From a virus (taxonomy: Duplodnaviria > Heunggongvirae > Uroviricota > Caudoviricetes), in the IMG/VR virus record IMGVR_UViG_2576861478_000002: DNA of 64,000 nucleotides. One strand, written 5' to 3'. Each line of letters starts with the position of its first letter. Position 1 is the first letter of the stretch. Positions 1 through 11,623 of this stretch are shown here, one piece after another. Both the position numbers and the translations under genes were made by a program. Under the pieces are notes generated by a model. It saw only the letters and a list, made by a program, of their open reading frames with translations. It searched no databases and had not been told where the DNA came from.

Positions 1-585
1 CTATAATAGTTCATCTTGTCCAAATAACTGATTTATAGCATTAGTAGAATCTTTTTTTCTTTTTAGTTCATTGAATTCAAAATCAATAACCCTAGATATT
101 CTTTCATAAAATTCGAGATATTCACGGCCGCTTAAAATAACATGTTCATTTGTTTCAGTGTCGGTTATTTGATTTGTACTAGTTGGACTTAAATTTAGGT
201 GATATTCTCCGTTAGTATTAAGAGTCTCCTTATGATAACCCAGACTTTCTAAGAAGCTTTCAAAGAAGTTTAGGTCATCTGAAAGTTTTAGTAGTCCTTT
301 AGCGGTTTTATCGTTAAATAAACTTGGCTCCTTTTCTAAAGCCTCTACACCTCTTTCAGCAATTTTCTGTTCTATTGCTTCATGATTTACAAATAAAAAA
401 GTATCCATAGGAACATTAAGTGCCTTAGCTATATTATTCAGTACTTCAAAGGAAATTTTTCTTTTGCCGTTTTCATATTGGGAAATTGCTTGTTGAGATA
501 CTCCTATCATTTCTCCTAATACAAATGCTGAAATTCCTTTCGCCTTTCGAATTTCTTTAATTACCTTACCTATGTTTTCTTGCAT
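1..585 (-). CDS. XRE-family HTH transcriptional repressor (candidate island master repressor)
   Basis: N-terminal HTH_3 motif (KAKGISAFVLGEMIGVSQQAISQYENGKR). No LexA-like S24 motif and no ImmA partner. Divergent from the + strand operon. Confidence 0.75.
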   Translation of the reverse strand: MQENIGKVIKEIRKAKGISAFVLGEMIGVSQQAISQYENGKRKISFEVLNNIAKALNVPMDTFLFVNHEAIEQKIAERGVEALEKEPSLFNDKTAKGLLKLSDDLNFFESFLESLGYHKETLNTNGEYHLNLSPTSTNQITDTETNEHVILSGREYLEFYERISRVIDFEFNELKRKKDSTNAINQLFGQDELL

Positions 586-639
586 GTTGTTTACCCTCCT
601 TGCTTGTATTATATGGAAAAATAATAAACATTACAACTA

Positions 640-805
640 AATGAAGTAAAAATAAATAAAAACCGTTGACACAACAACTCAATGAGGTATATTATTGTCT
701 TACAACAAGAAAATACAACAAATAGTAGTAAAAATCATCAAAAGTTATGTATATCTATCATATTGAATGTTTTACTTTAAAGAACTTATTAAAAAGGAGG
801 GTGAG
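640..805. promoter_or_regulatory. divergent promoter/operator region of the island (TTGACA at 665..670 with TATATT-like -10; repeated TACAACA motifs)
   Basis: Sigma-A-like hexamers 17 nt apart. Several direct copies of (T)ACAACAA lie between the divergent repressor and the rightward operon. Confidence 0.35.
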
Positions 806-807
806 TA

Positions 808-1077
808 GTGAATTTAAAATTTGAGTTACCAGATGATACGTTGATAACTTCTCGTTCTGATTTGAAAAGTTTATTACGTGAGTTAAAAGAGGAACTGCAG
901 GAAGAAAAAATGCAAGATGATATTTTTACAATTAAGGAAGCAGCTGAATATATGAAAGTAAGTATTCCAACCGTACGATCATTAATAGCTACAAATGAAA
1001 TACCTTATTTTAAAAGGGGACAAGTTATTCGTTTGAATCGTTGGGATATCCTTGACTGGATGCGTAAGGATAAATAG
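808..1077 (+). CDS. excisionase/AlpA-like HTH DNA-binding protein
   Basis: The C-terminal IFTIKEAAEYMKVSIPTVRSLIATNEIPYFKRGQVIRLNRWDILDWM matches the excisionase-family HTH pattern. A GGAGGG RBS precedes the GTG start. Confidence 0.7.
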   Translation: MNLKFELPDDTLITSRSDLKSLLRELKEELQEEKMQDDIFTIKEAAEYMKVSIPTVRSLIATNEIPYFKRGQVIRLNRWDILDWMRKDK

Positions 1078-1218
1078 GAAACTATGAAAATATAAAAAGC
1101 TACTAATATTTTGTTGGTCAGATGGTCTATTGCGGACCGAACATAAATGCAATGTTGGAAATGATAGCTGAAAAAAAGACGGTTGCAACGTCAAATTAAA
1201 AAAATGAGGTGAATACAT

Positions 1219-1365
1219 ATGAACGGAGTATTGTCTGCAACGAGGTTAATGAAGGCGCATGAAATTGTAAAACGATGTGCTGTAGCAAGAAAAAATCCTG
1301 AGATTTTAGAAGCTATGGAGTTTGAAGCTAAGAAAAGATTATACGAAATTAACAATAGTAAATAA
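1219..1365 (+). CDS. small hypothetical protein (48 aa)
   Basis: ATG preceded by a GAGGTGAA RBS; below the ORF-track length cutoff. Confidence 0.3.
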   Translation: MNGVLSATRLMKAHEIVKRCAVARKNPEILEAMEFEAKKRLYEINNSK

Positions 1366-1379
1366 GGAGCGTTAGAAAT

Positions 1380-1706
1380 ATGGATCAATTAGTAGCAGTC
1401 AATGAACAACCAAATTTAAAAAATTTCACAAGTGAACTTGATGGTGAATTAGGATCGCTGGGAGTAAGCGTTGCGACTTTAACAGATGTAGAAGTTCTTT
1501 TAGCGCACTTAGTAGAGGATATGGATACAGCGGTATACAAAGGTGAGGAAATTTATTGTTTTCGTGGGTTTCATAGAAAGCTAAGAGTGTATTGGCGCCT
1601 GCTCAATCATACGATGAATGAATTAAATAAAGAATATGAAAGAGTAGATGAAATTAAAGATGGATTATTTAAAGAGGTAGTAAAGAATGGTGAAAAAAGA
1701 CAATAA
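1380..1706 (+). CDS. hypothetical protein
   Basis: Same-strand ORF within the operon, with an AAGGAG RBS. Confidence 0.45.
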   Translation: MDQLVAVNEQPNLKNFTSELDGELGSLGVSVATLTDVEVLLAHLVEDMDTAVYKGEEIYCFRGFHRKLRVYWRLLNHTMNELNKEYERVDEIKDGLFKEVVKNGEKRQ

Positions 1707-9099: not shown

Positions 9100-9103
9100 T
9101 AAC

Positions 9104-10744
9104 GTGAATTATATACAAGGGTATTGGAATGCAATTGAATCTGGAGAAGTAATGGTTTCTAAGCGAGTTTATAGGCAATATAAACGATTAGTTGAGGATA
9201 TAGCAAAACCAAGCAAATATGTCTTTGATGAAGACAAGGCAAATAAACCTATTGAATTTATAGAGCGTTTTTGCAAGCACAGTAAGGGAGAATGGGCAGG
9301 TAAGCCGATTGAGTTAGAACTATTTCAAAAAGCTTATATAGCTGCTTTGTTCGGTTTTGTGGATAAGGATACAGGATTAAGACGATATCGAGAAAGTTTA
9401 TTCTATGTATCACGAAAAAATGGAAAAACAACGATGTTAGCAGGAATAGCGGCTTATATGCTTATTGCGGATGGAGAAGGCGGTGCGGAAGTTTACAGTA
9501 TAGCTAGTAAGCGAGATCAAGCTCGTATATTGTTTGATGAAACTCATAGCATGATTCAACAAAGTCCTAATTTATCCAAGCATATTAAGAAACGAAAAAG
9601 TGATCTGTATTTTCCGCTTACTATGTCTAAACTTATGCCGTTGGCGAAAAATAGTAATACATTAGACGGACTTAATAGCAGCATGGTTATTATTGATGAA
9701 TTACATTCAATTTTAGATCGTAATTTATACGAAGTTATGAAGCAAAGTCAATCAGCACGACAACAACCTATGTTAATTATGATTACAACGGCTGGGACAG
9801 TCAGAGAGAATATATTTGATGATATGTATTCGTATGCTTGTAATGTAGTAGACGGTAAATTTGAAGATGATAGCTTTTTGCCGATTCTTTACGAATTAGA
9901 TTCAAAAGAAGAATGGACAGACCCTACAACATGGAAAAAGGCAAACCCAGCTTTGGGATCAATTAAAAAACTAGATGATTTAGAAAGAAAAGTGGAAAAG
10001 GCAAAGAATAACCCTAGCGATCTAAGCGGCTTACTTACAAAGGACTTTAATGTTAGGGATACAATAAAGAGCGCATGGCTTACATTTGATGATATAAACA
10101 ACGAGGAAACATTTGATATACAGCAGTTTAGAAATTGCTATGCTATCGGTGGAGCGGATTTAAGTGTTACTACTGACTTATCTTGTGCAACTCTTTTATT
10201 TGTGGATAAAGACACCAAAAAACGGTTTATTCATCAAATGTATTGGCTGCCACGTGATAGTTTTGAAAAACGAGTTCAAATGGATAAGATTCCATATGAT
10301 AAATGGCTAGAGCAAGGGCTATTACGTCTTTGTAACGGAAATAGCATAAATTACGGTGATATAACAGCATGGTTTGTGGAAATGCTCAACAATTACGGAA
10401 TAACACCTTTGTGGGTTTATTATGACAGTTATTCGGCTAAGTATTGGGTAGAAGAAATGGAGCAACATGGCTTTAAAATGGTTAGATGCATTCAAGGAGC
10501 CAAAACTTTAAGTCTTCCTATGCAGCAGATGGGAGCCGATTTGCAAGCGAAAAAGATTAATTATAATAATTCACCTATTCTTAAATGGTGTTTAACTAAT
10601 ACAGGTGTGGAAACGGATCGTAACGGCAACATTGTACCAGTAAAAAATCAAGCTGCTAAGATGCGAATAGATGGAACAGCAAGTATGTTAGATGCTTATG
10701 TTGGTTTATTTGAGCATCATGATGAATTTTTAAGAGCCTTATAG
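9104..10744 (+). CDS. terminase large subunit
   Basis: Paralog of 27708..29408 and 61983..63641. ATPase and nuclease regions conserved. GTG start after AAGAGGTG. Confidence 0.9.
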   Translation: MNYIQGYWNAIESGEVMVSKRVYRQYKRLVEDIAKPSKYVFDEDKANKPIEFIERFCKHSKGEWAGKPIELELFQKAYIAALFGFVDKDTGLRRYRESLFYVSRKNGKTTMLAGIAAYMLIADGEGGAEVYSIASKRDQARILFDETHSMIQQSPNLSKHIKKRKSDLYFPLTMSKLMPLAKNSNTLDGLNSSMVIIDELHSILDRNLYEVMKQSQSARQQPMLIMITTAGTVRENIFDDMYSYACNVVDGKFEDDSFLPILYELDSKEEWTDPTTWKKANPALGSIKKLDDLERKVEKAKNNPSDLSGLLTKDFNVRDTIKSAWLTFDDINNEETFDIQQFRNCYAIGGADLSVTTDLSCATLLFVDKDTKKRFIHQMYWLPRDSFEKRVQMDKIPYDKWLEQGLLRLCNGNSINYGDITAWFVEMLNNYGITPLWVYYDSYSAKYWVEEMEQHGFKMVRCIQGAKTLSLPMQQMGADLQAKKINYNNSPILKWCLTNTGVETDRNGNIVPVKNQAAKMRIDGTASMLDAYVGLFEHHDEFLRAL

Positions 10745-10760
10745 GGGAGGGAGAATTATT

Positions 10761-11090
10761 ATGGCTACAACTCAAAAAAAGGATAAGAAAATAACTCTTT
10801 TAACGGCAACATGGACAGAAGATGAAATGGGACAGCGAATTCCGGAATGGGAACCGTTACCCAGCGGCGAAAACATTTGGGCATATTATCGACAAGCTTC
10901 AGCAGATGAATTTTTTGGAGCGGCTGCAATTAAATACAAAATAGAGGCTATTTTTAAAATTAGATGGCGTAATGATATTGATCCAACTATGAAAGTGCGT
11001 TTTAGAGGTACTGATTATGGAATAACTCGAATTGATGACTTTGAAGGTAATAAACAAGACTTAGTTATATATGCTTATGTAATTAAATAG
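10761..11090 (+). CDS. head closure / head-tail adaptor protein (SPP1 gp16-like)
   Basis: ~110 aa, positioned after terL. Same family as 32926..33225. Confidence 0.6.
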   Translation: MATTQKKDKKITLLTATWTEDEMGQRIPEWEPLPSGENIWAYYRQASADEFFGAAAIKYKIEAIFKIRWRNDIDPTMKVRFRGTDYGITRIDDFEGNKQDLVIYAYVIK

Positions 11091-11102
11091 GGGGAATGGA
11101 AT

Positions 11103-11312
11103 ATGTCAACTGAAAGATTAGAAAAAGAATTAGATAAGGCTTTAGATGACTTTAGAGAAAATACTTTATTTAATGTTGAAACGTTTGACCAAGTACACGA
11201 AAATGAATATTTAACAAAGGATGATCTAGAGGAAATCAATCGACAAGTCTTTTATTGTCTACATGATTTTAAAAGTAAAATCGTAAAATTTCTAAAAGAA
11301 AATAACCGTTAA
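11103..11312 (+). CDS. hypothetical protein
   Basis: RBS present; last + strand gene of the island. Confidence 0.4.
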   Translation: MSTERLEKELDKALDDFRENTLFNVETFDQVHENEYLTKDDLEEINRQVFYCLHDFKSKIVKFLKENNR

Positions 11313-11330
11313 TGATATGAAGAAGGGATG

Positions 11331-11356
11331 AGCGCAAAATTGCGCCCACCCTTTTT
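11331..11356 (+). terminator. rho-independent terminator (end of island operon)
   Basis: GCGCAAAATTGCGC hairpin followed by a T-run. Confidence 0.5.
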
Positions 11357-11623
11357 TATTGACTAACTATCGTCTCTAGTAAGTAATTTTCGCTCGTGAA
11401 ATTTTAGGAGCGAAATGTATCGTGAGAAATGAAGAAGGAAAATCTTTGGAGGGTATCTCTCATATATTATTTTTTGGTCACATTTCGGTCACGAAACATA
11501 TATAATCATTTACTTTTTATTTTCTTTTTTATCCTCTAAATTTAAAAAAACGTAGGGTTTACAGGTTTGGAAAAAGTCGTATTTCTTCTTATTTATATAT
11601 CTGATGCATGGGCGGAATGATGT

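Follow-up and report, generated by a model that had tools for sequence, protein, structure and literature searches.

A probable capsid-forming phage-inducible chromosomal island at the 3′ end of groEL in a Bacillus cereus group lineage

Introduction

The left end of a 64,000-nucleotide stretch of DNA from a tailed virus record (IMG/VR IMGVR_UViG_2576861478_000002; hereafter, the window) encodes a compact set of HK97-type head and packaging genes that is accompanied by a replication gene and regulators but not by any genes for a tail or for lysis. The question raised by this locus is whether the block is what is left of a prophage, a satellite that remodels the capsids of a helper phage, or a satellite that builds capsids of its own and completes them with the tails of other phages. 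The initial annotation, made from the window, favored the last of these readings, namely, a capsid-forming element related to phage-inducible chromosomal islands (PICIs). The analysis presented here supports this reading on the strength of an integrase, attachment (att) sites, an empty site, conserved relatives of 12.4-15.2 kb, circular forms and a large distance from phages. Window positions 1-11625, together with 1.3 kb immediately to the left, very probably comprise an intact, 12,948-bp integrative capsid-forming PICI (cf-PICI) of the Bacillus/Clostridium/Staphylococcus type, located at the 3′ end of groEL. All coordinates are positions in the window, the left edge of which cuts the element.

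The cf-PICIs were defined by Alqurainy et al. (bioRxiv 10.1101/2022.09.08.507074), who list Bacillus among the Firmicutes genera concerned and describe three separate origins of these elements. In their “first group”, from Bacillus, Clostridium and Staphylococcus, the operon opens with the portal, protease and capsid genes, whereas in the second group, hnh-terS-terL come first; the clade that spans Bacillus and Clostridium is well apart from phages. The survey of de Sousa et al. (PMC10085698), which also names Bacillus, reports 969 cfPICIs, for which the medians are 14 kb in length and 19 in protein number, present in <2% of Bacillaceae genomes. In the cf-PICIs of Gram-negative bacteria, the choice of phage tails is made by divergent adaptor and connector proteins. 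For Gram-positive cf-PICIs, experimental studies were not found in the searchable literature.

The element and its integration site

The window starts exactly at the stop codon of the repressor gene, and hence the left end of the element is missing from it. This end could be read from another contig (GCA_024712665.1, JAMXJX010000002.1), reached through a look-up of the repressor protein and 100% identical to window positions 1-10585 (10,585 bp). The leftward extension suggested by the initial annotation as a check yielded both of the expected features: a 392-aa tyrosine integrase with Arm-DNA-bind_4, SAM_3 and Phage_integrase domains, whose gene begins 48 bp past the left edge and is read leftward like that of the repressor, and an 18-bp att core. 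Together, the integrase and attL occupy 48-1322 bp outside the left edge, with the attL core being an 18-mer at the groEL stop codon, 1.3 kb from this edge; beyond the integrase lies the 3′ end of groEL. The two 18-bp repeats enclose 12,948 bp, cores included, so that the right end of the element is at 11625. The span of 1-11360 originally assigned to the element thus falls short on both sides, given that the right end is the attR core at 11608-11625 and the left end is outside the window. The junctions expected upon excision are GATGCATGGGCGGAATGATGTAACCATTAAGG for attP and GGTGGTATGGGCGGAATGATGTAATTCCGTTTGCCC for the restored attB. Sequenced strains in which the element is present include GCA_024712665.1, CP011349.1 and CP007607.1.

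The site without the element is represented by six sister loci (L005, L007, L008, L012, L013 and L014), which were found via an identical GuaA protein and in which groEL runs directly into the sequence to the right of 11625. The empty site consists of the left flank of attL, the core and the right flank of attR. In the window, attR is followed, as in the empty sites, by the native groEL terminator (11639-11676), the guaA promoter and a purine riboswitch. Because the att repeat is the last 18 nt of groEL and because of the structure of the empty sites, the sequences place the insertion at the 3′ end of groEL, with the groEL stop codon rebuilt. The guaA gene, next to which the element had originally been placed, was considered as the attachment site and rejected: the repeat is the groEL stop region, the empty sites join groEL straight to the guaA leader, and guaA is merely the next gene. 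The window contains no tRNA gene, and hence the attachment site is not of that kind. A pair of TTYGGTCAC motifs next to attR (Table 1) is matched by a second pair located ~50-75 bp inside attL; these pairs are likely to be arm sites of the integrase, which contains an Arm-DNA-bind_4 domain.

These boundaries bear directly on the lack of tail and lysis genes. An element of 12.9 kb that is bounded by att sites leaves no room for such genes, the attR core lies 535 bp past the head-closure gene, and neither tail or lysis modules nor scars of their loss were found. All open reading frames (ORFs) between the att cores are accounted for, and in agreement with the initial annotation, none of them encodes a tail, tape-measure, holin or lysin protein; neck, tail terminator, tube and baseplate genes are likewise lacking in the element. 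Tail and lysis genes just beyond the edge of the block, which would have made it an ordinary prophage, are not there either, with groEL on the left and the groEL terminator and guaA leader on the right. The presence of an integrase and att sites, combined with the lack of flanking tail genes, favors a satellite. Holin candidates were sought among the five unassigned small ORFs and were rejected, given that none of these ORFs contains a transmembrane-like segment. A PADLOC scan of the unassigned ORFs detected no defence system, just generic HTH and HNH matches. In base composition, the element is not distinct from its flanks.

Replication, regulation and head genes

Every ORF of the element is intact, and the genes listed in the initial annotation were all recovered, at or near their original positions, by ORF listing combined with family and profile searches; the same searches, along with a search for repeats, bore out the descriptions of the repressor, the excisionase-like protein, the primase-polymerase replication protein and the iterons (Table 1). 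A peptidase S24 domain was not found in the repressor by the family search. In the region between the divergent repressor gene and rightward operon, the top sigma-70-like site is on the plus strand at 666-695 (11 of 12 matches), with a leftward site at 636-608. The HTH_17 protein scores 47 bits against the TIGR01764 “excise” profile (cut-off 28.8). For the two small ORFs that follow, there is no Pfam or PADLOC match. The replication protein, 809 aa long in the database gene call, shows a sub-threshold likeness to the SCCmec Cch1 replicative helicase (NF047345, 3e-14). Directly 3′ of its gene are iteron-like 9-bp repeats (GTACYAAGA; 4241-4260, 4319-4355 and, in inverted orientation, 4528-4543), which flank a palindromic, AT-rich stretch (4350-4430). 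This is the layout expected of a replication origin located beside its initiator gene. The 50-aa ORF that precedes the portal gene is retained in three relatives (L023-L025).

Table 1. Features of the element within the window. Identity is that between the protein and its counterpart in the adjacent prophage
Feature	Coordinates	Strand	Evidence and remarks	Identity
XRE-family master repressor, 194 aa	1-585	-	PF01381 HTH_3, E 1e-16; phrog_3 transcriptional repressor, 1e-20	
Putative divergent promoter/switch region, repressor versus rightward operon	586-807		consensus matches only	
HTH_17 excisionase-family DNA-binding protein (excisionase or activator)	808-1077	+	PF12728, 1e-13; phrog_66	
Two small conserved ORFs, 48 aa (1219-1365) and 108 aa (1380-1706)	1219-1706	+	phrog_14590, 5e-25, and phrog_23736, 1e-56, both of unknown function	
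Replication protein, N-terminal Prim-Pol and DUF927 P-loop helicase-like domain	1808-4237	+	PF09250, 1e-7; PF06048, 1e-41	
Candidate replication origin	4238-4560		9-bp iterons around AT-rich core; position beside replicase gene	
Two small ORFs ahead of portal gene	4569-4945	+	75 aa, Cys/His-rich; 50 aa, phrog_34131, 5e-35	
Portal protein	4950-6146	+	PF04860, 3e-58; TIGR01537 portal_HK97, 125.8 bits, above cut-off	36%
Prohead serine protease (S78)	6143-6721	+	PF04586, 4e-31	32%
HK97-family major capsid protein	6726-7988	+	PF05065, 9e-35, over residues 155-415; TIGR01554, 2e-47, above cut-off	25%
Head-tail connector/adaptor Ad1 (HK97 gp6/SPP1 gp15 type)	8055-8342	+	phrog_40 “head-tail adaptor Ad1”, 4e-11; TIGR01560, 28 bits (cut-off 24)	
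HNH endonuclease (packaging accessory of cos-type HK97-like terminases)	8335-8625	+	PF01844, 1.6e-6	39%
Candidate cos site	8626-8751		126-bp gap between hnh and terS with G+C-rich blocks; assigned from motifs	
Probable small terminase TerS, 115 aa (P27/Terminase_4 type)	8752-9099	+	between HNH and TerL; phrog_2343 TerS, 3e-4	32%
Large terminase TerL	9104-10744	+	PF03354, 9e-34; PF20441, 1e-37	50%
Head closure/completion protein Hc1 (SPP1 gp16 type), tail-facing end of head	10761-11090	+	PF05521, 1e-14; TIGR01563 gp16_SPP1, 2e-14; phrog_25 “head closure Hc1”	
Small acidic ORF, 69 aa, last gene of element	11103-11312	+	no family match	
Stem-loop and T-run ending rightward operon	11326-11360	+	GGATGAGCGCAAAATTGCGCCCACCC then TTTTTTATT, read directly; scan gives same stem on opposite strand	
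Pair of TTYGGTCAC motifs, candidate integrase arm-type sites	11473-11492	+	side by side; sole two matches in 64 kb window	
attR core	11608-11625		ATGGGCGGAATGATGTAA; 18-bp direct repeat, duplicate of last 18 nt of groEL	

The rightward operon continues with the head and packaging genes, in which, as originally described, the HNH-TerS-TerL genes follow the Ad1 gene and come before the head-closure gene; their place in the adjacent prophage, which starts at 13636, is ahead of the portal gene. A protein identical to the major capsid protein is named by NCBI from B. thuringiensis serovar tolworthi. Its N-terminal region (residues 1-65) is predicted to be helical, in the manner of a delta or scaffold-like domain; the AlphaFold2 model that gives this prediction (14-sequence alignment) is otherwise unreliable, with a mean pLDDT of 40.5, and unusable. 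Sequence and profile searches of the PDB retrieved no significant match for the capsid protein (with either a single sequence or a profile), Ad1 or the TerS profile, and for Hc1, a marginal match to 2kz4, a “putative head-tail adaptor” (E 0.013). The gap between hnh and terS contains G+C-rich blocks, namely, a C-run, GGACCGAGGAGGAGC at 8665-8680, TTTCTATA and GGGAGGG, which are kept in the satellite relatives described below; the same layout is found upstream of terS in the adjacent prophage (27236-27348), and these two places are the only ones in the window where GACCGAG occurs. If the DNA were cut at this candidate cos, the order of genes in the packaged genome would be terS-terL-Hc1-attP-int ... 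portal-protease-capsid-Ad1-HNH, which puts HNH at the right end, as in HK97-like phages.

The 69-aa ORF at the end of the operon has homologs (38-52% identity) at the same position in seven relatives (L021, L022, L023, L030, L031, L039 and L066). In most relatives, it follows the head-closure gene; in L023, it precedes it. Its product may be an unrecognized head-completion or tail-docking factor.

The left-hand half of the element is laid out much like the Staphylococcus aureus pathogenicity islands (SaPIs), with an integrase and a leftward repressor facing a rightward operon, an excisionase, a primase/helicase of the DUF927/Cch-like kind with iterons beside its gene, and integration at the 3′ end of a conserved housekeeping gene with the stop codon rebuilt. 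Moreover, SaPIs of S. aureus are known to use the 3′ end of groEL for attachment. SaPIs use the capsid, portal and TerL of the helper and only redirect capsid size and packaging. The possibility that the element is such a classical PICI, one that remodels helper capsids, nevertheless appears hardly tenable. The element itself encodes the full set of portal, protease, capsid, TerL, Ad1 and Hc1, and no gene for capsid-size redirection was recognized in it. Portal and head-tail genes are forbidden in classical PICIs by SatelliteFinder (PMC10085698). By virtue of its own portal, capsid, TerL and connectors, the element falls outside the definition of the classical PICIs and SaPIs, and the assignment to cf-PICIs is supported by its sequence on the genomic features of that class, with the exception of TerS, which is a probable assignment from weak matches.

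A conserved family of tail-less elements

The same tail-less block is present in relatives from ~130 genomes and viral contigs. A scan with one genome per species yielded 49 loci across Bacillota, to which 6 metagenome loci were added; in every sufficiently long contig among the examined loci, portal-protease-capsid-Ad1-HNH-TerS-TerL are collinear, and wherever a head-closure gene was found, it follows this block. Homologs of the capsid protein with 86-100% identity come from genomes named B. thuringiensis, B. cereus, B. albus and B. mobilis, those with ~82% identity from B. mycoides and B. pseudomycoides, and those with 68-82% identity from Cytobacillus, Priestia, Niallia, Virgibacillus, Oceanobacillus and Clostridium. 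Among the satellites, the capsid proteins are 51-90% identical to that of the element, and TerL is 61-90% identical. The direct repeats that flank the relatives delimit spans of 12.4-15.2 kb, although chance may account for a few of the shorter repeats (14-16 bp). Cores derived from the 3′ end of groEL were found in Cytobacillus, Niallia, Alkalicoccus, Lentibacillus, Alkalibacillus, Macrococcoides and one metagenomic host, so that, as judged from the core sequences, this lineage of satellites uses the 3′ end of groEL in at least 7 genera of Bacillales, the present one counted. Several relatives in Clostridia have cores resembling the 3′ ends of tRNA genes.

Free forms of these elements appear to exist as well. 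In IMG/VR, 80 contigs encode a related capsid protein; their median length is 12.4 kb, the longest measures 17.6 kb, and no parent contig exceeds 19 kb. Nine different contigs from metagenomes and isolate assemblies look circular, with terminal overlaps, and correspond to circles of 12.5-14.7 kb. In two of these contigs (L017 and L018), the right arm is joined to the left arm through the att core, which is the attP form of an element that is integrated at groEL in two others (L015 and L016). By contrast with this close-knit family, phages are distant. A megablast search with the whole element against 50,697 phage genomes gave no DNA match, and the closest identities in these genomes, by which alone the separation from phages is judged, are <30% for the capsid protein, ≤54% for TerL and ≤34% for Hc1. 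Taken together, the tail-less block, the size of 12-15 kb, the circles and the distance from phages point to a conserved mobile entity, not a decayed prophage.

Decay is the alternative that has to be weighed most directly, that is, the inert product of a deletion that stripped an HK97-like siphovirus of its tail and lysis modules. The homology of the head and packaging genes to those of the neighboring prophage (25-50% identity; Table 1) is compatible with such an origin, and there is no direct evidence of excision for this copy. However, the att cores are flush with both ends of the element and the empty site is exact, so that the deletion would have had to spare both ends; all ORFs are intact; the same tail-less gene set of 12-15 kb recurs across families and classes of Bacillota at 50-90% protein identity, in some cases as closed circles; no phage genome encodes a capsid protein with >30% identity; and replication genes of the island type (Prim-Pol/DUF927, iterons alongside) are present instead of the DnaB_2 type found in the prophage. 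A defective remnant is, for these reasons, very improbable.

Within the family, modules are exchanged. In one genome labelled B. cereus by NCBI (L152), the head and packaging block is 93% identical to that of the element at the nucleotide level, whereas the integrase has diverged (part of it aligns, at 74%) and the repressor and replicase are different (D5_N/DUF5906 type), a case of modular mosaicism as seen from the sequences. Hc1 is the most variable morphogenetic protein among the relatives: in loci where TerL is 80-90% identical, Hc1 is 52-63% identical or below detection. In all 4 scanned loci with undetectable Hc1 similarity (TerL 80-84%), a PF05521 head-closure gene is located after terL or one small ORF further. 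Such variability is the pattern predicted by a model of tail specificity, given that adaptor and connector proteins set the tails in Gram-negative cf-PICIs, and by analogy with these, replacement of Hc1 alleles fits a role in choosing the captured tail.

Some relatives depart from the common plan. Bacillus ectoiniformans DSM 28970 (NZ_JAFBES010000025.1, 1-14255; L021, the same as L080) harbors a 14.16 kb circle (95-bp terminal overlap) with an 83% identical capsid protein. In place of a large integrase, it encodes a ParA-type ATPase (11049-11819) accompanied by a small partner ORF, a fusion of DnaG primase and DnaB helicase (425-2440), and a short, 190-aa tyrosine recombinase between hnh and terS (6388-6960), and from this gene content, it looks like a plasmid-maintained capsid-forming satellite. 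In the survey of de Sousa et al. (PMC10085698), 3 of the 969 cfPICIs were not chromosomal. The best TerL match in the phage database (54%) is in MT835664.1, an unannotated 22.5 kb “Bacteriophage sp.” from human faeces that also has a distant capsid match (23%) and could be a further small element with capsid genes, recorded as a phage. Three metagenome-assembled genomes labelled “uncultured Campylobacter sp.” (L051, L054 and L055) contain the satellite block with 50-52% capsid identity, on contigs that are probably mis-binned, given that the distribution is otherwise strictly limited to Bacillota.

Proposed life cycle and the source of tails

By analogy with the Gram-negative cf-PICIs, from which the steps between induction and tail capture are inferred, the following cycle can be outlined. 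A helper phage, either resident or infecting, would lift repression; such a helper would be needed because the repressor is not of the RecA-cleavable type. The element would then be excised as a 12.93 kb circle and replicate from its own origin. Its own HNH-TerS-TerL complex would cut at cos between hnh and terS and fill small capsids made of the element's own capsid protein, and Ad1 and Hc1 would seal these heads. The finished heads would join tails made by a siphovirus, and the lysis genes of the helper would release the particles.

Several points weigh against the cf-PICI reading as laid out here. The product of 8752-9099 is probably TerS, to judge from its position and from weak profile matches: PF05119 is below threshold (E 0.13) and reaches E≤0.01 in 5 of 20 orthologs, with 32% identity (3e-18) to the prophage gene in the same position. 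The candidate cos site and the candidate origin are both read from sequence motifs. A small, T=4-like capsid is predicted from the genome size of 12.9 kb. Activity, helper and tail source are all projected onto this element from the characterized Gram-negative cf-PICIs. The exact attP junction of the element, and with it an excised copy, was not found in IMG/VR. As for the helper, pairwise similarity between Ad1 and Hc1 of the element and those of the adjacent prophage is undetectable, and the 24 long contigs that encode an identical Hc1 look, by their sequences, like one clonal lineage, which makes them uninformative on transfer.

The initial annotation had suggested that the adjacent prophage (13.6-49.6 kb), located at the 3′ end of guaA, carries homologous, divergent head and connector genes and might donate the tails. 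The first part of this statement holds for the head and packaging genes; between the connectors, no pairwise similarity is detectable. The prophage has the gene order HNH-TerS-TerL-portal-protease-capsid-Ad1-Hc1-Ne1-tail terminator-major tail protein-tape measure, with packaging genes ahead of the portal, unlike the element; Ne1, Tc1 and the major tail protein are encoded in the prophage but not in the element. The prophage is a candidate in that it is a complete siphovirus (its genes include those for Ad1, Hc1, Ne1, the tail terminator and the major tail protein), with the same HNH+TerS+TerL type of packaging, a similar layout of the cos region and a structural half ~90% identical to that of the isolated Bacillus phage B13, and it accompanies the element in 24 of 24 long contigs with an identical Hc1. 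These contigs probably belong to one clonal lineage, however, so that the co-occurrence says little. The two insertions are independent, because the prophage is present while the groEL site is empty in two loci (L007 and L014; both insertions are present in L006) and because L152, with its near-identical head module, has no prophage after guaA. Furthermore, in published cf-PICIs, induction by one phage and acquisition of tails from another are possible, and the second prophage at ~50-64 kb and other phages could equally be the donors. The adjacent prophage thus is a possible tail donor for which the connectors and the separate occurrence of the two elements provide no support, and we consider it rather unlikely that a functional cf-PICI at this site draws its tails specifically from this neighbor.

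Comparison with known elements

Among the known systems, the “first group” of Firmicutes cf-PICIs is the closest match. The element shares with it the complement of integrase, regulator, primase-replicase, portal, protease, capsid, connectors, HNH, a probable TerS and TerL, the order in which portal-protease-capsid come first and the packaging genes afterwards, the lack of tail and holin genes, a size near the 14 kb median, capsid and TerL sequences far from those of phages, and a family distributed over Bacillus and Clostridium. The suggestion in the initial annotation that such elements would be novel in the B. cereus group was too strong because Bacillus cf-PICIs and their gene order had already been reported (10.1101/2022.09.08.507074; PMC10085698). 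No paper linking cf-PICIs or PICIs to B. cereus or B. thuringiensis was found in the searchable literature, with the survey supplementary tables that list Bacillus elements lying outside that search. The element thus constitutes a new cf-PICI, or at any rate one that has not been described individually, and not a new kind of element.

The experimentally studied EcCIEDL933, EcCIGN02175 and KpCIDSM30104 likewise combine an own small capsid and a cos/HNH terminase with the tails and lysis functions of phages, the present element being known from its genes alone. In place of the AlpA regulator of these three islands, it has an XRE repressor and an HTH_17 protein. It belongs to an independent lineage with another attachment site, host phylum and gene order, with its Hc1 gene located after terL; the replacement of Hc1 alleles in its family resembles the variability of the adaptor and connector proteins in the Gram-negative elements. 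With the HK97-like cos siphoviruses, such as B13, vB_BanS_Athena and the adjacent prophage, the element shares families of head and packaging proteins (TerL ~50% identity) and a similar cos layout. Unlike the element, these phages are 36-37 kb in size, possess tail and lysis genes and their own replication genes, and have the packaging genes ahead of the portal; capsid identity to them is ~25%. In contrast to SaPIs, the capsid, portal and TerL are encoded by the element itself.

Implications

Experiments on cf-PICIs have so far been confined, in the searchable literature, to E. coli and Klebsiella. The element described here would make a ready Gram-positive test case, being intact, well delimited and present in a heavily sequenced lineage of the B. 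cereus group (B. thuringiensis); its att site is defined, there are candidates for its origin and cos, and candidate helper prophages lie alongside. We put forward tentatively, as a real possibility rather than an expectation, that it is an active Gram-positive cf-PICI whose small, tail-less capsids are completed by the tails of B13/Athena-like siphoviruses of the B. cereus group, with a swappable head-closure protein of the gp16 type setting the choice of tails. These siphoviruses include phages of B. anthracis. If this proposal is correct, the element would provide the first experimentally tractable Gram-positive system of “tail piracy” and a means by which B. thuringiensis, B. cereus and B. 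anthracis could exchange DNA.

The comparison of relatives adds the use of the groEL 3′ end across Bacillales, free circles of 12.5-14.7 kb and swaps of the head-closure gene; such swaps between similar head modules are the expected look of tail-specificity switching. For annotation purposes, elements of this kind should not be scored as “incomplete prophages”.

Other features of the locus

The purine riboswitch in the guaA leader (11766-11867; Rfam RF00167, 84 bits) and the displaced groEL terminator ahead of it are unaltered by the insertion and are identical in the genomes with an empty site. Downstream of guaA, the sequence of L005, which includes a xanthine permease and a two-component system, is absent from the entire window, including positions 13571-64000, and hence the insertion at the 3′ end of guaA exceeds 50 kb. 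This insertion consists of the B13-like prophage (13.6-49.6 kb) followed by the second phage-like region (~50-64 kb), which encodes an HNH protein (61165-61500) and a TerL (61983-63641) 23% identical to that of the element.

Two further loci show other arrangements. In L010 (CP016194.1, 1-8000), which encodes an identical GuaA, the groEL att core has different cargo on its left, including a BppU_N/pectin-lyase tail-fibre-like protein, DUF3942 and others; the groEL 3′ site there seems to be taken by another mobile element, probably a full prophage. In L004 (GCA_051390695.1, 7400-8800), identity with the window extends over 2,439 bp, at which point the replicase gene is interrupted and runs into an additional, second copy of the tsaE-tsaB-rimI-tsaD region, a junction that reflects either a rearrangement through the element or a misassembly.

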